From assembly GCF_056746865.1 (NCBI RefSeq), contig NZ_CM163382.1: DNA of 64,000 nucleotides, one strand, 5' to 3'. Numbering within the stretch: the first letter of the stretch is position 1; the number at the start of each line of letters is the position of its first letter. Below the pieces are notes generated by a model, which did not search any database, was not told where the DNA came from, and saw nothing but the letters and a program-made list of their open reading frames with translations. A program made the position numbers and the translations under genes. Of the stretch, positions 3,196-62,224 are shown piece after piece.

Positions 3196-4325
3196 GCAAC
3201 GGCATTGTGATCATTGGTTCGGGCTTCGCCGCCCGCCAACTGGTGAAAAATATTCGCAAACAGGACGCCTGTATTCCATTAACCCTGATTGCCGCCGACA
3301 GCATGGATGAGTACAACAAACCGGACCTCAGCCATGTTATCAGCCAGAGGCAACGTGCCGATGACCTTACCCGCCAGACGGCGGGTGAATTTGCCGAGCA
3401 GTTTAATCTGCACCTGTTTCCGCACACCTGGATAATGGATATCGATGCCGAAGCCCATGTGGTGAAAAGCCAGAATAATCAGTGGCAATACGACAAGCTG
3501 GTGCTGGCAACTGGTGCCAGTGCCTTTGTCCCGCCAGTGCCTGGGCGTGAGTTAATGCTGACGTTAAATAGTCAGCAAGAGTATCGCGCCTGTGAAACGC
3601 AACTGCGGGATGCCCGACGCGTGTTGATTGTTGGCGGTGGCTTGATTGGTAGCGAACTGGCGATGGATTTTTGTCGTGCAGGCAAAGCGGTCACGCTAAT
3701 CGACAACGCTGCCAGTATTCTGGCGTCGTTAATGCCACCGGAAGTAAGCAGCCGCTTGCAGCATCGGTTGACGGAGATGGGCGTTCATCTGCTGTTGAAA
3801 TCTCAGTTGCAGGGGCTGGAAAAAACGGATTCTGGCATTCTGGCAACGCTGGACCGCCAGCGCAGCATCGAAGTGGATGCGGTAATTGCCGCCACCGGAC
3901 TGCGCCCGGAAACCGCCCTGGCACGACGCGCCGGGCTGACGATTAATCGCGGCGTTTGCGTCGATAGTTATCTGCAAACCAGTAATGCCGATATTTATGC
4001 GCTGGGCGATTGCACGGAAATTAACGGTCAGGTATTGCCGTTCCTCCAGCCGATTCAACTTAGCGCGATGGTGCTGGCAAAAAATCTTCTCGGCAATAAC
4101 ACGCCGCTGAAACTCCCTGCGATGCTGGTGAAAATCAAAACGCCAGAATTACCGCTGCATCTGGCAGGCGAAACCCAGCGTCAGGATTTACGCTGGCAAA
4201 TTAATACCGAACGCCAGGGAATGGTGGCGCGCGGTGTTGATGATGCCGACCAGCTTCGCGCCTTTGTGGTCAGTGAGGATCGGATGAAAGAGGCGTTTGG
4301 ATTGTTGAAAACGTTGCCGGTGTAG
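3192..4325 (+). CDS. norW: NADH:flavorubredoxin oxidoreductase
   Basis: 377-aa ORF overlapping the norV stop; N-terminal FAD/NAD fold GSGFAA, second dinucleotide motif GGGLIGSE. Confidence 0.95.
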
Positions 4326-4402: not shown

Positions 4403-6643
4403 CTATGCAGCATGCAGGATGCGCGCCGCAGCAATAACCCCCTGCCCCAGAGACAAGCCGCCATCACCCGCCGGTAAACTCTGCGGAAAGAGTAATGTGA
4501 AATCAGCGAGATAATGCGCCAGGCGTGTACGCAGCAATCGGTTATGAGTAACCCCACCGCTAAATACCAGCGTAGTGATACCGCGCATCGTGGCCTGCTC
4601 ACGCATCAACGCGGCAAAACCCTGCGCCAGCGCATCATGAAACGCCCACGCGCGTTGATTAACCGGTGCCTGCCAGTTCAGCCACTGCTGCCAGAAAGTG
4701 ACGAGATCCAGTTGATTGTCCACCTGCGGCATCGTCACCGGATGCGTCACTCCGTCGCATGAGGCTGCGAGCGCCTCCAGAGCACAAGCCGCTTCACCTT
4801 CATAACTTAACGTGGCTGGCGCACAGCCCAGTGCCGCCGCCACAGCATCGAACAAACGTCCACACGATGACGCCAGCGGCGCGTTAATTCCACGCTCAAT
4901 GGCCCGCGCCAGCACGCTCCAGTTTTGCTGTTGCACACTTGCCGTTTCAGGGTAATTCTGCCACTCCGGCACAAAGCGCAGGCACTGCGCCAGCAGGTTA
5001 CGCCACGGCTGCTTTGCAGCCAAATCGCCCCCCGGAAGCGCCACCGCAGGCAAGCCGCCCAGGTGCTCACATTCGCGATAGTTCACCCGCAGGCATTCGC
5101 CGCCCCATAAAGCGCCGTTCTCCCCCATACCGATACCGTCGAGCGTCAACGCAATGACATCACCGCCATCCAGTGGCCAGTGATGTTCTGCCAGACACGC
5201 CGCCGCATGAGCATGATGATGCAGCACCGTTTGTGTCGGCAGATTCATTTCGCGCGCCCACTGGCTGGAGACATAGCCCGGGTGCGCGTCATGCACAACG
5301 TATTGCGGGGTGAAATCGTAGATGTTTTGCATCAGGCGTAACGCTTCGCGCCACTGCATCTGGATGCCATCGTCACTTAAATCGCCCAGATGCTGACTCA
5401 ACACCGCTTGTTCGCCGCGCACCAGGCAGAAGGTGTTTTTCAGATCCGCACCGAGACACAGCACAGGCGGAACATTTTTAAAGCCCGGAGGCAAAGCCAG
5501 CGCATCCGGCACATACCCCCGCGAACGGCGCAGCATTTCGCCGCTTTCGCGCACCACCGAATCATCCATCCGCTGCACGATGTCGCGGTTATGTAGCAAG
5601 AATCCGTCGGCAATGCCCTGCAAATCCGCCAGCGCCTGTTCGTTGCTGATAGCCGGTGGTTTACCGCTCAGGTTGCCGGAGGTCATCACCAGCGGACATT
5701 GCAGTTCCTGTAACAGCAAATGCTGAAGCGGGTTCGCAGGCAACATTACCCCGACTTCGTTAAGGCCAGGGGCGATATCATCACAAAGCTCAGGTACGTA
5801 TTTTTTATCCACCAGCACAATCGGCGCGGCGGGCGTGGTAAGCAACTGGCGCGCAGCGTCTGGTAAACCTTCTGCCACTGGCAACATGACCGCCAGCGGT
5901 TTCGCCGGGCGATGTTTGCGCGCCCGAAGTGTCGCCACCGCGTTACTGTTACACGCATCGCAGGCGAGATGAAATCCGCCAATCCCTTTGATGGCGACAA
6001 TGTTGCCCATTTTTAACTGTGCGATAGCCGCCTGTAATGCCGCCTCTTGTTCTGCATGTTCACCATGACTTACCCATTCAAGATGTGGGCCACACTCCGG
6101 GCAGGCCACCGGCTGGGCGTGGAAGCGACGATCGAGCGGGTCGCGATATTCTTTGTCACAGGCCGGACACAGCGGAAACGCCGCCATCACGGTAAACGGG
6201 CGGTCGTAAGGCATCGCGCGAATAATGGTGAAACGTGGGCCGCAGTGGGTACAGTTGATAAACGGATAACGATAACGCCGCTCGCCCGGGGTATTCATTT
6301 CGGCAAGACAGGCAGGGCAAGTAGCGGCATCGGGAACAATTTGCGTATTCATGGTGCCGCCTGTGCTCTGGCGTATAGTGAACTCGGTGGGCAGTTGTGA
6401 CCAGATAAACGGCTCACGCTCGACGCTATCAATACGCGCCAGCGGCGGGCAGTGCTGATGCAACTGCACAAGAAACGTTTCCGGGTCTTCCAGCAGCCGG
6501 ACTTCCACTCCATCGCCGTCATTACAGACATCGCCGTGAAGATTTAATTGCTGTGCCAGCTGCCAGACAAACGGACGAAAACCGACGCCCTGCACTTTGC
6601 CACGAATACGCAGTTGGACACCGCAAGATGTGTTTTTTGCCAT
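4403..6643 (-). CDS. hypF: [NiFe]-hydrogenase maturation carbamoyltransferase HypF
   Basis: long ORF (open to 6715); start taken at [25 protein letters not shown]; acylphosphatase N-terminus and zinc-finger CxxC pairs. Confidence 0.9.
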
Positions 6644-8741: not shown

Positions 8742-11632
<2,891 letters not shown>

Positions 11633-48837: not shown

Positions 48838-48969
48838 TCAAATCCACGAATATCAAGCCTTTCAGCCATTTTCATAGCTTATTAACGTCTACTCACAACT
48901 ACCAGAATCTACACACAGAAGTGTATAGTAATGCGTATAGGACAAAATTTATTTTTTGGAGCTATACAC

Positions 48970-50184
48970 ATGCTGCTTTCAGACCTTGCTATCAGGCGCG
49001 CGAAGCCGAAAGAAAAGGCTTATACACTCAATGACGGTAACGGGCTTTCGTTACTCATTGAGCCGAACGGCTCGAAAGGGTGGCGACTACGTTACAGATT
49101 TGCAGGAAAGCCCAAAATGTTGTCGTTGGGCGTGTACCCTGATGTGTCTCTGTCTGATGCCAGAGCGGCAAGGGATGAGGCTAAAAGGCTTCTTGCTGGT
49201 GGTATAAATCCAAGTGAGGCCAGAAAAGCTCAAAAGCGAGAACAGGCGAGCAAATTTGGCAATACTTTTGAGGGTATCGCTCGCGAATGGTATGAAAAGC
49301 GGATCGACAGGTGGTCATCGTCATACGCCGAGGAAATGATCGAGACGTTTGAAAAAGACGTTTTTCCGTACATTGGCGGCAGGCCGATCGCAGAAATTAA
49401 GCCAATGGAGTTGCTTGCGGTTCTCTCCCGTCTTAATGACCGTGGGGCGACCGAAAAATTGCGTAAGGTTCGCCAGCGATGCGGCGAGGTGTTCCGGTAC
49501 GCAATCATCACCGGACGCGCTGAATATAACCCCGCACCAGATCTGGCAAGCGCATTTGCTCCACACAAAAAAGAGCATTATGCCTATTTGAAGGCCGACG
49601 AACTGCCGGAATTTTTCCGCGTTCTTAATACGTACACCGGAAGCCAGATCGTCAAGCTGGGTATGCGATTATTGATTCTGACAGGGCTCCGGCCAGGGGA
49701 ATTACGACAGGCAGAATGGCAGGAGATCGATTTTGATAATCGTTTGTGGGAAGTGCCTAAAGAACGAATGAAGATGCGCCGTCCTCATTGTGTGCCGCTT
49801 TCAGAACAGGCGATCGCTATTCTGGAACAGTTAAAACACATGACGGGGCAGTATCAGTTTATTTTCCCTGGTCGAATCCAGCACAGTAAGCCGATGAGTG
49901 AAATGGCGATGAACGTGCTTATTCGTCGTATTGGCTATTCTGGGCGCGTTACTGGTCATGGGTTCCGGCACACGATGAGCACGATTTTACATGAGCAGGG
50001 CTATAACACCGCGTGGATAGAAACGCAGCTTGCACACGTTGATAAGAACTCAATTCGTGGCACGTACAATCATGCGCAATATCTGGACGGGCGGCGCGAG
50101 ATGCTCCAGTGGTACGCCGACTATATGGACTCACTGGAACAGGGCGGCAACGTGGTGCATGGCAAGTTCGGAAAATGTGGATGA
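48970..50184 (+). CDS. int: tyrosine recombinase, P4/CP4-57-type integrase
   Basis: 404 aa from MLLSDLAIRRAK; N-terminal arm-binding-like domain; C-terminal catalytic GHGFRHT and RGTYNHAQY. Confidence 0.9.
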   Translation: MLLSDLAIRRAKPKEKAYTLNDGNGLSLLIEPNGSKGWRLRYRFAGKPKMLSLGVYPDVSLSDARAARDEAKRLLAGGINPSEARKAQKREQASKFGNTFEGIAREWYEKRIDRWSSSYAEEMIETFEKDVFPYIGGRPIAEIKPMELLAVLSRLNDRGATEKLRKVRQRCGEVFRYAIITGRAEYNPAPDLASAFAPHKKEHYAYLKADELPEFFRVLNTYTGSQIVKLGMRLLILTGLRPGELRQAEWQEIDFDNRLWEVPKERMKMRRPHCVPLSEQAIAILEQLKHMTGQYQFIFPGRIQHSKPMSEMAMNVLIRRIGYSGRVTGHGFRHTMSTILHEQGYNTAWIETQLAHVDKNSIRGTYNHAQYLDGRREMLQWYADYMDSLEQGGNVVHGKFGKCG

Positions 50185-50312
50185 CTGGTTGAGTATACAG
50201 TAGTAGACTTTGAGCGACGAAAGAAAAAGCTGTGTCTAGGGTCGCTCCCGAAAAACCGTATACCTCGACGGGCTGGCACAGCCACTACAGTAGAGGACGC
50301 TGAGGTGTGCGT

Positions 50313-54569: not shown

Positions 54570-56692
54570 AACGCGCACCGAATTTAAAGCACCAGCCGAA
54601 AGACAAAATGACGGAGGTGATTATCTTTGCGGGTAGTGATGCCTGGGCACATGCGAAAGAGTGGAGCGAATGGGCCGGAAAGCATATTGCGGCAGATGAT
54701 ACACATCCAGTTATTCTTGGACCGGAACAACTGGCGAGTCTGGCAGACACGCAAATCATCGACAAAGGGCGCTATTACGTGCGCGTTTATCGTGCTGGTG
54801 AAATATCAGAGCAGCACCTTACACAGATAGCGACACTGCTTGCAGTGGCGGGTGTGAAGGAGGCGCGTTGCTACCGCAGCTTTGTTGATCAGCAGCCGGA
54901 GGACTGGACACCGCGCATGGCTGGACTGAAGGATGATGCGGAACGCGGTAACAGTCTGGTGATCAACCTTCCGGCGAAGACAAATTTCACCGGAAATTAT
55001 GATGACGAATTAAAGCCTCGTGTTGAAAGTCGCGTCGATGGTGTTTTCTGGGTAACGCCCAAAGTGGACAAGCAGTCAGGCGAAATTATCCGGCCTGAGA
55101 CGTGGTTATGTTCTCCGCTTGAACTACTGGGAACAGGAACAATCGGCAAAGAGCATTACCGCGTGATGCGCTGGAAAAAACCAGCAAACCATGAGGTCAT
55201 TACAATGGCGGTCCCGTGCGGAGGCATTGGTGACCGTGACGGCTGGCGGTTGCTGAAAGACCACGGCCTTAACGTGACGACCAACGGCAAATACAGGGCT
55301 ATCTTGGCTGACTGGATGCAGTTAAGCGGAAACCATGAGGAATGGCAGTTAAGCACAACAACGGGGTGGCATTTTGGTGCGTACATCATGCCGGATGGTT
55401 CGATCATCGGTGAATCAGAGAAACCCATCCTGTTTACCGGAAAAACTGCCGCTGTTAATGGCTATTCCGTGGCGGGAACAGCGGAGGGCTGGCGCGATAC
55501 CGTGGCACGGCTGGCTGGTGGTAATCCGTCCATGATGCTGGGTGTGGCGGTATCGCTATCTGCACCATTAATCGGGCTGGTGGGTGCTGACGGCTTCGGG
55601 GTTCATCTTTTTGAGCAATCATCAGCAGGTAAAACCACCACACAGAACATTGCATCAAGTTTATGGGGAGAGCCGGACGCGCAACGGCTGACCTGGTACG
55701 GAACGGCGTTAGGTATCGCCAACGAGGCCGAAGCACATAATGACGGGCTGTTACCCCTGGATGAAATAGGCCAGGCCGGAAACGCACGGGAGGTGTCCAC
55801 GTCAGCCTATACGCTGTTTAACGGTTCCGGGAAATTACAGGGGGCGAAGGACGGCGGCAACAGGGAGATAAAACACTGGCGTACGGTGGCAATCAGCACC
55901 GGAGAAATGGACGTTGAAACATTCCTCAAAACGGAAGGGATAAAAATTAAAGCGGGACAGCTTGTCCGTCTGCTTAACGTACCGATGGAAAAGGCCTCGC
56001 AGTTTCACGAATACAGCACCGGAAAGGCGCACGCAGACGCGTTAAAAGATGCCTGGACAGAAAATCACGGGGCGGCAGGTCGTGAGTGGGTTAAATGGCT
56101 GGCAGGCCACCAGCAGGAGGCAAAGGACGCGGTAAGGGCATGTCGCGAGCGGTGGCGCAACCTGATACCGGAGAGCTACGGCGAGCAGGTTCACCGTGTG
56201 GGGGAAAGATTCGCCGTACTGGAGGCCGCGCTTGTGCTTTCCGGTCATGTTACAGGCTGGGATGTTCAGGCGTGCCGTGATGCAGTTCAGCATAACTTTA
56301 ATGCCTGGGTGAAGGAATTCGGCACGGGCAACAGGGAATTTAAACAGATGGTTGAACAGGCTGAGGCGTTTTTGTCGTCGTTCGGGTTCAGTCGATACCT
56401 TCCCTATCCAAACAGCGACGAGCGTGATTTACCGATTAAAGACCTTGCCGGATACAGAAAGGGGAGTATCAGAAACGAAGATGACGAGTTCCGTTTTTAC
56501 ACGTTCCCGCATGTGTTTGAGGGTGAGATAGCACAGGGATTTAATCCGTCTCACTTTGCCCGCGCGTTGAGTGCAGCCGGAATGCTGGAAGCGGGAGGCG
56601 ACCGCCGTTACAAGAAAAAGGCGCTCGGCAGGATTGGCGGGAAGCAACATATTTTTTACGTGCTGATGTTCCAGCCTGAAGCAGAAGATTAA
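54566..56692 (+). CDS. putative replication initiator (primase/helicase-like P-loop protein)
   Basis: 708 aa; Walker-A-like FEQSSAGKTT; directly upstream of iteron cluster and SSB gene. Confidence 0.65.
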   Translation: MKRAPNLKHQPKDKMTEVIIFAGSDAWAHAKEWSEWAGKHIAADDTHPVILGPEQLASLADTQIIDKGRYYVRVYRAGEISEQHLTQIATLLAVAGVKEARCYRSFVDQQPEDWTPRMAGLKDDAERGNSLVINLPAKTNFTGNYDDELKPRVESRVDGVFWVTPKVDKQSGEIIRPETWLCSPLELLGTGTIGKEHYRVMRWKKPANHEVITMAVPCGGIGDRDGWRLLKDHGLNVTTNGKYRAILADWMQLSGNHEEWQLSTTTGWHFGAYIMPDGSIIGESEKPILFTGKTAAVNGYSVAGTAEGWRDTVARLAGGNPSMMLGVAVSLSAPLIGLVGADGFGVHLFEQSSAGKTTTQNIASSLWGEPDAQRLTWYGTALGIANEAEAHNDGLLPLDEIGQAGNAREVSTSAYTLFNGSGKLQGAKDGGNREIKHWRTVAISTGEMDVETFLKTEGIKIKAGQLVRLLNVPMEKASQFHEYSTGKAHADALKDAWTENHGAAGREWVKWLAGHQQEAKDAVRACRERWRNLIPESYGEQVHRVGERFAVLEAALVLSGHVTGWDVQACRDAVQHNFNAWVKEFGTGNREFKQMVEQAEAFLSSFGFSRYLPYPNSDERDLPIKDLAGYRKGSIRNEDDEFRFYTFPHVFEGEIAQGFNPSHFARALSAAGMLEAGGDRRYKKKALGRIGGKQHIFYVLMFQPEAED

Positions 56693-56715
56693 CTTCCCTG
56701 TGTGAGGTAAAAAGT

Positions 56716-56840
56716 TGCGGGTTATGCGGGTTATCCTGTGCATAAGTTAATTAACTGAATGATTAAAAAGGAAATTAATAACCCGCACGTAACCCGCAAA
56801 ACGGCAGTTATAACCCGCAAATGTGCGATTGTAACCCGCA
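56716..56840. repeat. iteron cluster TAACCCGCA (putative island origin of replication)
   Basis: direct copies at 56779, 56790, 56811, 56832 (spacing 11/21/21 bp) plus inverted tandem gcgggttat at 56717-56734. Confidence 0.65.
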
Positions 56841-56902
56841 AAATTTCACTGTAAGAGTGTAAACAAGCGTAACTATCACGTTAAAACCGGAGAACAAACA
56901 GC

Positions 56903-57328
56903 ATGACGGCGCAAATATCAGCTTACGGGCGGCTGGTGGCTGACCCGCAGTTAAAGACCACCAGCAAGGGCACACAAATGGCGATGGCGAGTATGGCGGT
57001 CCCCCTTCCATGCAATCAGACAGATGACGGAACGGCGACGATGTGGTTATCCGTCCTGGCGTTTGGCAGACAGGCTGACGCACTGGCAAAACACCACAAA
57101 GGCGAACTGGTGAGCGTGGCCGGTAACATGCAGGTGAGCTGGTGGACGGGCCAGAACGGCGAAACGAGGCAGGGATGGCAGGTTATCGCAGACAGCGTAA
57201 TCAGTGCGCGAACGGCGCGACCGGGCGGCAAAAAAGGCCAGCAGGGGCAGGCTACTGATGCACTGAACAGGGCAAAGCAACAGACAGGCCAGCACGATGA
57301 TCCGTACGGGGACGGGATACCGTTTTAA
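56903..57328 (+). CDS. ssb: single-stranded DNA-binding protein (SSB-like)
   Basis: 141 aa; OB-fold-like N-terminus, Gly/Gln-rich linker, C-terminal acidic tail DDPYGDGIPF. Confidence 0.7.
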   Translation: MTAQISAYGRLVADPQLKTTSKGTQMAMASMAVPLPCNQTDDGTATMWLSVLAFGRQADALAKHHKGELVSVAGNMQVSWWTGQNGETRQGWQVIADSVISARTARPGGKKGQQGQATDALNRAKQQTGQHDDPYGDGIPF

Positions 57329-57411
57329 TTCACAACAGCGAACAGAGTAATTACCCAGTGCGCCGTAAAGCCCCGTCCTTCAGGTCGGGGATATAAGGCG
57401 CGGTTTTCCAC

Positions 57412-57828
57412 CTAACTAGGTGTTTGCTGTTGTTCAATGTATTGGCGGATGATGGATATTGGCGCACCTCCGCAGCTACTGGCAAAATAGCTGGGACTCC
57501 ATAAAACGCCTTTGTAGTAATACCTGACTGCAATATCTGGTCGATCTCGTCGCAATAATCTACTCGATACGCCCTTGAGACTGTTCACCAGGGTGGATAT
57601 CGCCAATTTGGGAGGATAGTTAATTAGCAGGTGAACGTGATCTCGTTCTCCATCCATTTCAACCAGTTCAGCTTCAAAATCAGCACATACACTTGAAAAG
57701 TAAGTGCGTAGTTTTTCTATTGCGTCATGGTCAAAAATCTGGCGTCGGTACTTGGTAACAAAGACCAGGTGAACGTGCATCAGGAAGACACAGTGCCTTC
57801 CACGTCGGATATCGGTTTCTTTTTTCAT
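57412..57828 (-). CDS. tnpA: IS200/IS605 Y1 (HUH) transposase TnpA
   Basis: 138 aa from MKKETDIRRG; HUH motif HVHLL and catalytic Tyr region VLWSPSYFASSCGG. Confidence 0.85.
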   Translation of the reverse strand: MKKETDIRRGRHCVFLMHVHLVFVTKYRRQIFDHDAIEKLRTYFSSVCADFEAELVEMDGERDHVHLLINYPPKLAISTLVNSLKGVSSRLLRRDRPDIAVRYYYKGVLWSPSYFASSCGGAPISIIRQYIEQQQTPS

Positions 57829-57850
57829 AGGCCAAAGTATAATTTGGCAT

Positions 57851-59059
57851 ATGAAACGACTACAAGCTTTCAAATTCCAGTTAAGACCAAATGGAAAACA
57901 GGAGCGTGAAATGAGGCGCTTCGCGGGCGCATGTCGTTTCGTTTTCAATCGTGCTCTGGCGCTTCAGAATGAGAATCATGAGGCCGGGAACAAATATATT
58001 TCTTATGCAAAGATGACTTCCTGGCTGGTTGAATGGAAAAATGCTACTGAAACGCAATGGCTTAAAGATTCTCCCTCACAGCCATTGCAGCAGTCACTGA
58101 AAGACCTTGAGCGAGCCTACAAAAATTTCTTTCAGAAGCGTGCCGCTTTTCCCCGATTCAAAAAGCGGGGACAGCATGATGCATTCCGCTATCCGCAGGG
58201 TGTTAAGCTCGATCAGGAAAACAGCCGTATTTTTCTGCCGAAACTGGGCTGGATGCGCTACCGGAACAGCCGTCAGGTCACGGGTGTTGTGAAAAATGTC
58301 ACTGTCAGCCAGTCCTGCGGTAAGTGGTACATCAGTATTCAGACAGAAAGTGAAGTATCAACTCCGGTTCACCCTTCAGCATTAATGGTCGGGCTGGATG
58401 CTGGCGTGGCTAAACTCGCCACGCTGTCAGATGGCACGGTCTTTGAGCCTGTAAACAGTTTTCATAAAAACCAGAAGAAGCTGGCGAGACTTCAGCGCCA
58501 GTTAAGCCGCAAGGTTAAATTCAGCAACAACTGGCAGAAGCAGAAACGCAAAATACAGCGACTGCATTCCCGTATCGCAAATATCCGCAGGGACTACCTT
58601 CACAAAGTCACAACGACCATCAGCAAAAACCACGCAATGATAGTCATTGAGGATTTGAAGGTCAGCAACATGTCAAAGTCAGCCTCGGGTACGGTCAGCC
58701 AGCCGGGGCGCAATGTCCGGGCAAAATCAGGTTTAAACCGTTCGATACTGGATCAGGGCTGGTATGAAATGCGCCGTCAGCTTGAGTACAAGCAGCTCTG
58801 GTGTGGCGGTCAGGTGCTTGCTGTTCCGCCAGCGTACACAAGCCAGCGTTGCGCGTGCTGTGGTCATACAGCGAAAGAAAATCGCCTGTCACAAAGTCAA
58901 TTCAGATGCCAGGTATGTGGATATACAGCGAACGCCGATGTAAACGGCGCTCGTAACATTTTAGCGGCGGGGCACGCCGTTCTTGCCTGTGGAGGGATGG
59001 TGCAGTCAGGCCGCCCGTTGAAGCAGGAACCCACCGAAATGATTCAGGCGACAGCCTGA
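57851..59059 (+). CDS. tnpB: TnpB (OrfB) RuvC-like RNA-guided nuclease
   Basis: 402 aa; N-terminus [17 protein letters not shown]; RuvC region [15 protein letters not shown]; zinc finger [12 protein letters not shown]...CQVCG; [10 protein letters not shown]. Confidence 0.85.
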
Positions 59060-59118
59060 ACGTAGCAGGAATCCACGTCCTTCAGGGCGTGGAGGATGTC
59101 AAATATCAATGCGACGAC
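58900..59118 (+). ncRNA. predicted TnpB omega-RNA (tnpB 3-prime end, right-end hairpin, flanking guide)
   Basis: inferred from IS200/IS605 architecture only; right-end hairpin 59073-59092; guide would be about 16 nt from 59103. Confidence 0.3.
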
Positions 59119-59258
59119 TGGAATGTTCCAGGAAGGCACAGAGGCCACCGAAGCAACCGGATAATTTAGAAGACCTGAAACGGTCGCTTAAACGCACTGA
59201 AAAAGAAATGGGGATAGATGGGATCGGGAAATCAGTATGGCGTAACTACCAGAAGTAA
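59109..59258 (+). CDS. possible small basic protein (49 aa)
   Basis: ATG at 59109 just right of the inferred IS end; MRRLECSRKAQRPPKQPDNLEDLKR...; followed by strong terminator; no clear RBS. Confidence 0.25.
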   Translation: MRRLECSRKAQRPPKQPDNLEDLKRSLKRTEKEMGIDGIGKSVWRNYQK

Positions 59259-59264
59259 GCACAG

Positions 59265-59289
59265 AGCCGGAGCAATCCGGCTTTTTTTT
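59265..59289 (+). terminator. rho-independent terminator
   Basis: agccgga-gcaa-tccggct stem followed by T8. Confidence 0.7.
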
Positions 59290-59389
59290 GGCTGAAATCA
59301 ATCAATCTGTTTTTGTGATAGAAATATATTTATCTACCACTTTTTTCGATCAATAATGTGCATAATTTAGTCATTAAGAGGAAATTGCT

Positions 59390-59596
59390 GTGAATTGTAT
59401 TAACGACCTGAACACAGGCGATGTCAGAGGTGGTTCCGTTCATCTGGATGCACAGACCGTGATGCGCCTTAAGCAGTACAGAATCGACCATGTGAACAAT
59501 CACCCTGATCAGCCATTACCAGGCGTGGCGCAGATTGTCAGACATGCCGTAAACGCCTGGCTTAATCAGAATGGTTTTGCATCGGGGGGTGAGTAA
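59390..59596 (+). CDS. small hypothetical protein, first gene of cargo operon
   Basis: 68 aa; GTG start with RBS aagagg 8 nt upstream; AT-rich promoter-like region upstream. Confidence 0.45.
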   Translation: MNCINDLNTGDVRGGSVHLDAQTVMRLKQYRIDHVNNHPDQPLPGVAQIVRHAVNAWLNQNGFASGGE

Positions 59597-59692
59597 TGAA
59601 TCGCTGGTACAGCATCAAAGCAGAGGGACGCCAATGTTATCTAACTCAGGTTTTATGAATTCTGACTCCCGATTCAAAATAGGAGGTTACTA

Positions 59693-62224
59693 ATGCCAGT
59701 CGTACCAACAGTATCCGGACGTCAGGTTGAGAGCCGTGGAGTTCAGTCAGCAGGCTTGCAGACGTTTTCTCAGCCAGGTATTGGTGATGCTTTTGTTCGG
59801 GCAGGGGCAGAGGCAATTGATGTTTTTGGTCAGGCAAAACAGCGTGCCAATATTGCCTTGATTCAGGAGGCATCCCTTAAACTCAGTCAGATAGGCAGTG
59901 ATCTGCTGAATAATCCTGAAACAGGATTGCTTAACCTGAAAGGGAAAAATGCTATTGGAAAAGGCCATGAGTATACACAGCAGTTTGATGCTCAGATCGA
60001 ACAACTGGCTATGTCGCTGCCGGATGAACAGGCTCGTAATGCTTTCATGCAGCAGGCGCAGCAGCAGCGTATTCAGTTCGCTACGCAGGCCGGGAGGTAC
60101 GAGATAGGGCAAATAAATGCCTACGAAGAAGGCCAGTTTCAGGCGACACTGCTGAATAATGGTAAAAATGCCTCAGCATTATATGGCGACAACGCAGCAT
60201 ACATATTGGCTAATACGCAAACTTTCCAGCAAATTGAGGATTACGGTATTGCGCATGGCTGGAGCGACGAGCAAATCCAGGCCAAGAAAATCGAGTTTAA
60301 AGAAGCAACAGCAAAAGCAACTGCTCAAAATGCTATTGGAGCAAACTATCTTCAGGTAAGACAGCAAAATGGCGAGTTAAGCGATACTGCTGCTGGATCT
60401 CGCCGTGCTGTAGCAGATAGTGGCTCTTCCGATCGTACCCGCGGTATACGCAACAATAACCCCGGCAATCTTGAATACAGCAAAACTAATCCGTGGATTG
60501 GGCAGACTGGTGATGATGGTCGCTTTGCCAAATTCGAAACCCCTGAACACGGTATTCGCGCGCTTGGTCGCAATTTGCTGTCGTATCAGCGTCAGGGTTA
60601 TGACACCATCAGCGAAATAATTAATCGCTGGGCACCGGCCAGTGATGATAATAAAACTGATGCTTATATACGGGCAGTATGTGCTCAGCTCGGTGTAACT
60701 CCTGACCAGCCGCTTGACGCATCAAATCCTGACACACTGAAATCTCTGTGCAAAGCAATTATTCATCATGAGCAAGGCAGTCAGCCGTACAGTGATCAGC
60801 AATTGGCCGCTGGCGTTAGTGCCGCACTGGGGCTTTCTCAGCTACCGACAAAAAATAAACGTTATACCGGTGTAGCCTGGTTCGATGCTTTAAGTGAATC
60901 AGATCAGGCCAGCGTGTTGCGACAGACGGATGCATTAGCCAGACAGCAGCAGGCTGAATATAGAACGATGCTCGAAAGCCGGGTTCGCGATGCAACGGCT
61001 GCGTATATGCGTGGCGTTGAATTTCCTAACCCGCCTGGTGAGGGTGAGTTCATTGCTGCTTATGGTGTCAGAGAAGGAAACCTGCGATATACCGAGTTCA
61101 GAAATTTGCAGATCGCCGGACAGTATATAGGCTCTTTCCGCAACATGCCGACAAGCAGCATTACCGCATATGTTGAGCAATTACGCCCGGATACTGGTGA
61201 GACAGGGGAGGGGTATGCGTCTCGTGCGGAGTTATTCGACCGGGTATCGGCGGCAGCCACGAAGGTAATAACCCAGAGGCAGAATAATCCGTTTAGTGCA
61301 GCGGTGGAAATCGGAGCCTATAAGCCGATCACCAGCAACAACCCTGACGACATCACTGCCGAGGTGGCTAACCGTTTCTCGTCGCAGGAAAGCTTACGCG
61401 CGTTGGGAATTAATGCCCCACTCCTCAACAGTGAAGAGGCGGCTGCGCTGGCACAGCAGGTGCGCGGCACTCAGAACGTTGACCAGACAATTAAACTGTT
61501 GCAGAGCATGGGGGAGAAGCTGCCTGCGCCAGCAATACGGCAGGTGGCATCTGTAATTGCTCCGAACAGTGCGGCAACAGCCTATTCTGCGCTGCTGCTG
61601 GGCACGCCGGATAACCAGTACGACAACACCAGGCCGACGATCCCATATAGTCAGTTCATCGGGTATAAGCCGACGATGAACAAGTACGACGTTGCAAAGG
61701 TTATTCTTTCCGGCGACCAACTACTGAATCCGACGAAGGCCATGAAGAATGCGGGCATAACTCCGGTACAGTTGCCGAGCGAAGATAAGATGAAAGACGC
61801 TTTCGACGAACAGGTAGGTAATGCATTTGCCCGTAACCCGCAGTTACGCCAGATCAGTTATAGCCTTTTCAAAGCCGCTTACGCAGGAATAGCTTATCAA
61901 TCTGGTGATGCCTCTACGGTAAGAACCAGTATGCCTGATACAGACATTGTAGCTGATGCCGTGAAGTATGCTACTGGCGGTATATACAATGGTTTTAATG
62001 GCGGCGACGTTGTAATGCCTTTTGGCATGGATAAATCTACTTTCAAAGATCGCTATACCACATCTGCGAAACAAGCACTGAAAGATGCCGGACTTAACGT
62101 AAATGCAGTGTCAAATTTCACGCCAGTTAATATCGGCAATAACCGGTATCGGCTTGTAAATGGTAGCGGACGCTGGGCAACAGATCCCAGAACCAATAAA
62201 GCTATTGTCGTGAGGGTTGAATAA
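59693..62224 (+). CDS. large hypothetical protein (843 aa), Q/A-rich
   Basis: strong RBS aggagg; conserved-looking central block IRNNNPGNLEYSKTNPWIGQ...FAKFETPEHGIRALGRNLLSYQRQGYDTISEIINRWAP; no P-loop; function unknown. Confidence 0.7.
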   Translation: MPVVPTVSGRQVESRGVQSAGLQTFSQPGIGDAFVRAGAEAIDVFGQAKQRANIALIQEASLKLSQIGSDLLNNPETGLLNLKGKNAIGKGHEYTQQFDAQIEQLAMSLPDEQARNAFMQQAQQQRIQFATQAGRYEIGQINAYEEGQFQATLLNNGKNASALYGDNAAYILANTQTFQQIEDYGIAHGWSDEQIQAKKIEFKEATAKATAQNAIGANYLQVRQQNGELSDTAAGSRRAVADSGSSDRTRGIRNNNPGNLEYSKTNPWIGQTGDDGRFAKFETPEHGIRALGRNLLSYQRQGYDTISEIINRWAPASDDNKTDAYIRAVCAQLGVTPDQPLDASNPDTLKSLCKAIIHHEQGSQPYSDQQLAAGVSAALGLSQLPTKNKRYTGVAWFDALSESDQASVLRQTDALARQQQAEYRTMLESRVRDATAAYMRGVEFPNPPGEGEFIAAYGVREGNLRYTEFRNLQIAGQYIGSFRNMPTSSITAYVEQLRPDTGETGEGYASRAELFDRVSAAATKVITQRQNNPFSAAVEIGAYKPITSNNPDDITAEVANRFSSQESLRALGINAPLLNSEEAAALAQQVRGTQNVDQTIKLLQSMGEKLPAPAIRQVASVIAPNSAATAYSALLLGTPDNQYDNTRPTIPYSQFIGYKPTMNKYDVAKVILSGDQLLNPTKAMKNAGITPVQLPSEDKMKDAFDEQVGNAFARNPQLRQISYSLFKAAYAGIAYQSGDASTVRTSMPDTDIVADAVKYATGGIYNGFNGGDVVMPFGMDKSTFKDRYTTSAKQALKDAGLNVNAVSNFTPVNIGNNRYRLVNGSGRWATDPRTNKAIVVRVE

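Follow-up and report, generated by a model that had tools for sequence, protein, structure and literature searches.

A probable omega-RNA module at the right end of an IS609-like insertion sequence, and a TTAC-bounded loss of host DNA at its insertion site

INTRODUCTION

What does the right end of a TnpB-encoding insertion sequence (IS) specify, and where does the element stop and its host begin? We considered this question for positions 58900 to 59290 of a 64,000-nt stretch of contig NZ_CM163382.1 (here called the window, with position 1 as its first letter). This interval contains, in order, the last ~160 nt of a tnpB gene, the 43-nt right end of the element, 160 nt of flanking sequence with a short open reading frame (ORF), and an intrinsic terminator. 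An earlier reading of the letters alone (the sequence-only reading) had proposed an omega-RNA and a guide at this position. With high confidence, we assign 58896-59118 to an intact IS609-like IS200/IS605 element as its omega-RNA (reRNA) module. The terminator and short ORF that follow are host sequence, and the element occupies the point at which 983 bp of a host island, bounded by two TTAC sites, is missing.

RESULTS

An intact IS609-like element

An intact IS609-like IS200/IS605 insertion sequence is present at 57355-59102. The element and its two genes are as follows.

57355-59102, plus strand: complete IS609-like IS200/IS605 element, 1748 bp, from megablast and flank alignments
57412-57828, minus strand: tnpA, Y1 (HUH) transposase (Pfam Y1_Tnp, E = 3.6e-42; NCBIfam transpos_IS200, E = 2.8e-43)
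57851-59059, plus strand: tnpB (insQ), RNA-guided endonuclease, 402 aa (NCBIfam guided_TnpB, E = 7.9e-117)

Megablast of 57330-59110 gave element matches, annotated as IS609 or insQ, in 5015 of 5426 complete E. coli genomes, and most E. coli matches were 90-95% identical to the query. Copies that were 100% identical were found in the plasmid records NZ_AP027794.1 and NZ_JBRKKH010000003.1, and the RefSeq label on such copies is "RNA-guided endonuclease InsQ/TnpB." Among the matches listed, starts fell at window positions 57348-57351 (57351 in all except one) and ends at 59102-59110. Working names are used below for the IS-free relative E. coli SCU-105 (L001), for divergent copies of the element (L002-L009), for copies of the IS609 group (L010-L017), and for plasmid NZ_AP027794.1 (L018). 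At the right, similarity stopped exactly after ...GGATGTCAA (59102) in 16 independent insertions. Eight of these belong to the IS609 group (the window and L010-L017 are cited, the latter at differing sites), and eight are the divergent relatives L002-L009, from Klebsiella, Salmonella, E. fergusonii, E. coli, and Arsenophonus plasmids. At the left, end alignments of L002-L017 showed that similarity starts immediately 3' of a flank tetranucleotide. Because the IS end is homologous to thousands of copies, chance was ruled out as its origin. The 3' terminus of the element is ...GGAGGATGTCAA at 59102, and the same last 12 bases end the published IS609 scaffold described below.

Both family scores of the tnpA product exceeded their cut-offs, identifying it as a Y1 HUH transposase of the kind found in IS200/IS605 elements, and a counterpart of equal size at an equal offset is annotated in the identical copy L010. 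The tnpB product scored 390.8 bits with guided_TnpB, against a cut-off of 100, contains the Pfam helix-turn-helix (HTH), OrfB_IS605, and Cas12f1-like TNB domains, and matched the ISDra2 TnpB structures 8bf8, 8exa, and 8h1j (E = 1.8e-55). This TnpB retains an intact RuvC catalytic triad (D183, E267, and D363) and an intact zinc finger, with the CxxC pairs CACCG and CQVCG. The two genes are divergent and only 22 nt separate their start codons (57829-57850); therefore, the promoter of each gene must sit within the coding sequence of the other.

The omega-RNA scaffold has a conserved, covarying structure

The scaffold was delimited in an extended form and in a core form, with helices as listed.

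58896-59102, plus strand: extended omega-RNA scaffold, 207 nt, overlapping the last 164 nt of tnpB and the right end, from gapless alignment to the published scaffold
58986-59102, plus strand: omega-RNA core, 117 nt, whose helices covary among 13 homologues
58986-58990/59023-59027, 58994-59001/59010-59016, 59039-59049/59054-59063, and 59072-59080/59085-59093, plus strand: core helices, from RNAalifold and minimum free energy (MFE) folding

A 207-nt "IS609 omegaRNA scaffold" is given in Table S3 of Nucleic Acids Research (NAR) 2026 gkaf1433 (PMC12781874). It aligned to window 58896-59102 without a gap, and both sequences end with ...GGAGGAUGUCAA (59102). The window counterpart is composed of the 3' end of tnpB and the non-coding part of the right end, which amounts to 43 nt (59060-59102); it has the orientation of tnpB and extends exactly to the transposon boundary, as an omega-RNA scaffold does. 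In the same Table S3, the ISDra2, ISDge10, and ISYmu1 scaffolds have a 3' module consisting of GAAUC, a 7-9-bp hairpin with a UUYA loop, and GAG...UCAA (PMC12781874). The window has this module in common with them. The gapless match and the covarying core thus uphold the proposal that an omega-RNA extends over the tnpB 3' end and the right-end hairpin.

The region has a conserved, covarying RNA secondary structure. The RNAalifold consensus for 13 sequences (the window, the published IS609 scaffold, three ISAba30 scaffolds, and eight plasmid copies, some of which are close to one another) contained 26 pairs in five helices, with compensatory changes at 8 pairs. Standard pairs occupied 92.6% of the alignment cells, versus 40-52% when the partners were slid by 1-3 columns, and the covariation score of 0.237 (shuffled mean, 0.128) was reached by none of 500 shuffles. 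The core at 58986-59102 folded on its own into the same helices at -46.7 kcal/mol (z = -2.9), and none of 200 shuffles was as stable; the shuffles of the fold and of the covariation together rule out chance as the source of the core structure. The MFE z-score of the 207-nt scaffold was -2.5. Most of the compensatory changes fell in helix 59039-59049/59054-59063, including a change from GC to AU at one pair in five sequences. Since this helix straddles the tnpB stop codon and is not a known TnpA signal, it argues for constraint at the RNA level.

The predicted guide and its predicted target

The guide and the motif expected to license cleavage were assigned from the two flanks.

59103-59118, plus strand: predicted 16-nt guide ATATCAATGCGACGAC, the first flank sequence after the IS end (20-nt form to 59122)
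57351-57354, plus strand: TTAC, left-flank target and cleavage site C_L and predicted target-adjacent motif (TAM), from sequence, with its L001 counterpart at 3554-3557

As the boundary between the IS and its flank lies exactly at 59102|59103, the guide was taken to start at 59103. The reRNA of ISDra2 is ~150 nt long, its last ~16 nt come from the flank, and its TAM is the TnpA target (PMC8612924). By analogy with ISDra2, the guide is predicted to read AUAUCAAUGCGACGAC as RNA, with a length of 16 nt, and the mature guide RNA is expected to include ~16-20 nt of the flank. The right-end/flank junction of the window is RE|AGGGGAAGGC. The sequence-only reading had likewise placed the guide in the first ~16 nt of flank from 59103, in agreement with the boundary in the flank alignments; the string that it gave for the guide, aatatcaatgcgacga, had slipped by one base and included the last A of the IS (59102).

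The same reading had suggested a search for the uninterrupted TTAC target in related islands, and this target was found. TTAC stands directly before ATATCAATGCGACGAC in IS-free islands, at 4537-4540 in L001, and a query made of the flank joint matched at least 40 IS-free E. coli genomes at no less than 99%, with matches starting at the T of TTAC among the matches listed. The guide therefore matches the empty site beside TTAC, which is the TnpA target, and the TAM is predicted from the flanks to be TTAC. In the window, the sequence matched by the guide belongs to the adjacent perC-like remnant described below. Within the window, with up to 3 mismatches allowed, the guide matched only the flank itself, and because the flank is preceded there by TCAA instead of TTAC, the element is not self-targeted.

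In the mechanism that we propose, a transcript that runs through the 3' end of tnpB and leaves the element at its right end would contain a scaffold of ~117-207 nt (58896 or 58986 to 59102) that binds TnpB, and its next ~16 nt (59103-59118) would serve as the guide. Probably, the tnpB mRNA itself becomes this RNA once TnpB has trimmed its 5' end and cellular nucleases its 3' end, and the downstream terminator would at most end the primary read-through transcript. TnpB would then cut DNA that carries TTAC followed by the guide sequence, which may be either the vacated donor joint after TnpA excision or an IS-free island allele, and a copy that still bears the IS would serve as the template for homologous repair, which would bring the element back (transposon retention, or homing). 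For ISDra2, the vacated donor joint is the proposed cleavage target, with repair from the sister copy (PMC8612924). The right-end hairpin, GAAT, and TCAA would double as TnpA recognition and cleavage signals on single-stranded DNA.

End signals and two target forms

The signals at the two ends of the element were located as follows.

57367-57390, plus strand: left-end guide AAAG (57367-57370), then the imperfect palindrome CCCCGTCC-TTCA-GGTCGGGG (57371-57390), from sequence and DNA folding
59069-59102, plus strand: right-end TnpA signals, namely, G_R GAAT (59069-59072), a hairpin (59072-59093), and the cleavage site TCAA (59099-59102)

In the right-end hairpin, 59072-59080 pairs with 59085-59093 around a TTCA loop; it folded at -15.7 kcal/mol as RNA (z = -3.0) and gave z = -3.1 as DNA. 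Both ends thus have the subterminal imperfect palindromes and the guide and cleavage tetranucleotides of IS200/IS605 elements, and terminal inverted repeats are lacking. In the window, L010, L012, and both L018 copies, the element lies directly 3' of TTAC, and the target was not duplicated at the right end. The specificity tetranucleotides of IS608 are TTAC (C_L), AAAG (G_L), GAAT (G_R), and TCAA (C_R), and the IS608 target TTAC is read by G_L in normal excision and integration (PMC5934647).

Comparison of the copies revealed two IS609-type forms. The TTAC flank is also present at nearly identical copies elsewhere (L010, L012, and both L018 copies), and in these, as in the window, it is combined with AAAG at the left and GAAT at the right. 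In the second form, a TTAT flank is combined with AAAA at the left (L013-L017 and L002); of these copies, L013-L017 were confirmed to have GGAT at the right. The target thus changes from C to T together with a change from G to A in the guide, as expected from the IS608 pairing rule. The left hairpin of the window form has a T-T mismatch (GGTCGGGG, versus GGGCGGGG in the TTAT form). The TnpB proteins of the two types (window 57851-59059 and L015 561-1769) were 96% identical, with 16 substitutions.

Several further features of individual copies were observed. Substitutions between the TnpBs of the TTAC and TTAT types bunch in part at the N terminus (N14G, K16Q, S51P, A53G, T56A, Q95R, and H109N). 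L011 (plasmid NZ_CP095127.1) has an odd left end, ...TTTTTAC|CCCGGTGCGCCTTATAT-CCCCG; its flank reads TTAC, and the tetranucleotide before its hairpin is neither AAAG nor AAAA, which does not fit the simple pairing rule. L002, at 191362-191868 of K. pneumoniae plasmid NZ_CP125139.1, is an internally deleted mini-element: ~80 nt from the left end adjoins a stretch made of the final ~270 nt of tnpB and the right end. Its omega-RNA region is complete, tnpA and tnpB are absent, and the flank is TTAT. E. coli plasmid L018 carries copies at 4700-6455 and 9414-11168 that are 100% identical to the window IS, in direct orientation ~3 kb apart, with TTAC before each. The right flanks of the two L018 copies share the motif GCGATTTTGCCT at differing offsets and adjoin small hypothetical genes (204 and 192 nt).

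Other explanations for the right-end structure

Several points weigh against a guide RNA made by this copy. Part of the covariation is expected for other reasons, as TnpA requires the right-end hairpin in its DNA form and helices 1 and 2 fall within coding sequence. No plus-strand sigma-70-like promoter was found in 56500-60500 by a simple consensus scan. For this locus, we infer transcription, processing, ribonucleoprotein formation, cleavage, and TAM specificity from homologous systems, and TTAC was deduced as the TAM of this variant solely from its flanks. In the one published screen found to include an IS609 TnpB (NAR 2026 gkaf1433), this protein was one of nine purified candidates, the highest trans-cleavage came from a different orthologue, and the IS609 that was screened was tested with the TAM TTAT, not TTAC. 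No Rfam family reached its gathering score at the IS right end, and the segment does not qualify as a member of the three families that came closest: HgcC (RF00062) at 58992-59115, plus strand (E = 0.0017; 27.3 bits versus a gathering score of 50), sot0042 (RF02656; 18.7 bits versus 88), and RAGATH-18 (RF03064; 28.1 bits versus 44.9). In archaea, HgcC and the haloarchaeal sot RNAs each overlap a TnpB gene at its 3' end. All three sub-threshold matches were on the plus strand within 58932-59115, and they were taken as corroboration only.

These points bear most directly on the possibility that the hairpins reflect nothing but constraints on the DNA and on the protein, that is, TnpA acting on the single-stranded right end and the C-terminal codons of tnpB, with no discrete functional guide RNA from this copy. 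The location of helices 1 and 2 inside tnpB, the IS608-type TnpA signals (hairpin 59072-59093, GAAT, and TCAA) in a hairpin that folds as DNA too, and the lack of a plus-strand promoter-like site and of an Rfam family past threshold would all be in keeping with this. Nevertheless, we consider it improbable, given that helix 59039-59049/59054-59063 is not among the IS608 TnpA signals (hairpin, G_R, and C_R) and yet has the most compensatory changes, that the segment is homologous to scaffolds used in vitro as omega-RNAs, and that its 3' module is common to the experimentally defined ISDra2 reRNA. In addition, TnpB is intact, and the 100% identical copies elsewhere point to recent transposition. 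It is a little harder still to credit that the functional unit is a long 3' untranslated region of the tnpB mRNA that reaches the terminator at 59263-59292, so that ~190 nt of flank would be part of the mature RNA. A strong intrinsic terminator does lie 160 nt downstream on the same strand, read-through could plausibly stop there, and the scan gave no other plus-strand terminator-like site in 59103-59262. Against this, the terminator is host sequence that stands in identical form behind the perC-like gene of IS-free islands, other copies of the same IS lie in unrelated flanks, and the mature ISDra2 reRNA contains only ~16 nt of flank (PMC8612924). The omega-RNA module at 58896-59118 therefore remains our preferred explanation.

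The host flank

The flank downstream of the guide start contains two host features.

59109-59258, plus strand: 49-codon ORF, C-terminal remnant of a PerC-family gene, host sequence (Pfam PerC, E = 4.1e-14)
59263-59292, plus strand: intrinsic terminator of the perC-like gene, from a terminator scan

The 49-codon ORF matched PerC Pfam positions 41-88 of 90, indicating that it is the tail of a truncated gene, as had been suspected. Its counterpart in L001 is the 3' part of a "PerC family transcriptional regulator" that is annotated as frameshifted (4471-4696), and the L001 perC-like gene starts directly after the stop codon of the upstream gene. The proposal that the insertion itself disrupted this gene was correct insofar as a perC-like gene is truncated here; the 983 bp between two TTACs is missing as well, however, and since L001 already carries it as an annotated frameshifted pseudogene, the gene truncated in the window was probably non-functional beforehand.

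The terminator has a stem at 59263-59284 (9 pairs, 5 of them G-C, and a loop of 4) followed by eight T residues; it lies 160 nt past the IS end and folded at -16.5 kcal/mol (z = -3.0), with 1 of 200 shuffles as stable. An identical terminator was found at the same place in the IS-free L001 (~4703-4733). Because the terminator and the ORF are identical in IS-free islands, the terminator is not part of the omega-RNA. The sequence-only reading was thus right that a terminator is present, and its view that the terminator closes the omega-RNA was not sustained; a terminator borne by the IS was rejected on the same grounds. The perC-like terminator probably also stops read-through transcription that leaves the IS. 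A feature on the minus strand at 58900-59290 was considered as well and rejected, since that strand has only short unsupported ORFs.

The wider surroundings point to an integrated island. An Rfam scan of the whole window at gathering thresholds gave only the int-alpA RNA motif (RF02996) at 50229-50296 (46.9 bits, above threshold), which follows a 417-aa ORF at 48931-50184. This ORF is probably an integrase, to judge by the adjacent int-alpA motif, and the two likely mark the start of a P4-like integrated island that hosts the IS. The island further carries a DUF927 protein, a single-stranded DNA-binding protein (SSB), and the perC remnant. No tRNA gene was found in the 64-kb window.

Loss of 983 bp between two TTAC sites

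In a simple insertion, the two flanks would be contiguous in empty sites. Instead, the two flanks were separated by 983 bp in every one of the 15 IS-free relatives with listed positions for both flanks, a result that concerns the history of this copy and not its family membership. In L001, the TTAC at 3554-3557 closes the left flank, and a second TTAC immediately precedes the right flank, which starts at 4541; the empty site there reads TTAC|ATATCAATG. The stretch missing from the window corresponds to L001 3558-4540, and the IS sits at the deletion point (window 57354|57355 and 59102|59103). The missing DNA comprises one ProQ/FinO-family gene and one hypothetical gene, together with the 5' part of the perC remnant. 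Plus-strand TTACs are few, with only seven in ~1.2 kb, and five of these lie between the two sites used. As both endpoints are exactly 3' of TTAC and only seven TTACs occur in ~1.2 kb, the loss points to a TnpA-type site specificity, not to random deletion. An IS-less joint, in which the left flank is fused to the right flank, was found in none of the 5426 complete E. coli genomes, and there is therefore no support for a deletion that predated the IS in a known island variant. Intermediates with the IS at the upstream TTAC only or at the downstream TTAC only were likewise absent from the 5426 complete E. coli genomes. The exact right-end junction, GGATGTCAAATATCAATGCGACGAC, had 0 matches in species-representative genomes and 0 in the metagenome collection. 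Since the junction itself is unique in all collections searched, the lack of intermediates weighs little.

Two routes to this structure were considered. There is about an even chance that direct copies of the IS came to lie at both TTACs (L001 3557 and 4540), whether on a single chromosome or, following a local hop, on sister chromatids, and that homologous recombination removed the interval together with one copy; a TnpB cut at the vacated donor joint could have stimulated the exchange. In its favour are the deletion endpoints, which lie exactly 3' of TTAC where plus-strand TTACs are few, and the presence of the 983 bp in every one of the 15 IS-free relatives compared. The L018 plasmid, with two 100% identical direct copies, each after TTAC, shows that direct copies do come to lie close together. 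On the other hand, this route needs two events, no single-site intermediate was found among the complete E. coli genomes, and the right-end junction was absent from the genome and metagenome collections. The absence of a two-copy intermediate is instead what would be expected of a one-step intramolecular TnpA event, which we regard as possible and rather unlikely. In such an event, with the IS at the upstream TTAC, TnpA would leave the left TTAC of the element uncut and cut the next suitable TTAC downstream, to which the left-end guide AAAG would be paired; the right end, cleaved in situ, would be joined to ATATCAATG after the downstream TTAC, and the 983-nt interval would be freed as a single-stranded circle. 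The product would have the structure observed, TTAC#1|IS|sequence following TTAC#2, and the chemistry would be that of normal IS608 excision and integration, in which G_L reads the target TTAC (PMC5934647). This route is pure inference, no report of adjacent deletions by IS200/IS605 transposases was found in the searchable literature, and there are five other plus-strand TTACs between the two sites used.

DISCUSSION

The closest known system is IS609 itself, with which the window element shares the divergent order of tnpA and tnpB, a tnpB of 402 aa whose product is 96% identical, DNA identity of ~95% over the whole element, the right terminus GGAGGATGTCAA, and an omega-RNA scaffold that is homologous without gaps. 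It differs in that the window form has TTAC, AAAG, and GAAT, whereas the sampled chromosomal IS609 copies (L013-L017) have TTAT, AAAA, and GGAT. The mechanistic model for TnpA is IS608 of Helicobacter pylori, with which the window element shares all four specificity tetranucleotides (PMC5934647). Subterminal imperfect palindromes are likewise found in both elements, and both insert 3' of TTAC with no target duplication; the hairpin sequences differ. ISDra2 of Deinococcus radiodurans, which is experimentally defined, has a homologous TnpB, an RNA from the tnpB 3' end and the right end, the same 3' module (GAAUC, hairpin, and GAG..UCAA), a guide taken from the flank right after ...TCAA, and a TAM that equals the TnpA target. 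In contrast, its TAM is TTGAT and the one predicted here is TTAC, and the upstream scaffolds could not be aligned by eye.

The feature studied here is a standard guide-RNA module of a known and abundant E. coli insertion sequence of the IS609 type, and its novelty is low. The TnpB/omega-RNA module is textbook material, the element is among the commonest insertion sequences of E. coli, and an IS609 omega-RNA scaffold has already been published. What the present analysis contributes is the exact IS boundary, with the predicted guide and TAM that follow from it, the recognition that the terminator and the short ORF come from a perC-like remnant of the host, and the description of a copy with a TTAC-to-TTAC deletion that affects three host genes. 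Because TTAC- and TTAT-targeting IS609-type forms are ~95% identical, users of an "IS609" TnpB should check which TAM applies.

The sole loose end of some interest is the deletion. The precise loss from TTAC to TTAC may record, and we offer this only tentatively, an IS200/IS605 activity not yet described, whether a one-step adjacent deletion by TnpA or unequal repair stimulated by a TnpB cut after a local hop. The TTAC-bounded deletion provides a natural test case for adjacent deletions by IS200/IS605 enzymes, and if either route were true, IS200/IS605 elements would be direct agents of site-specific deletions in host islands.

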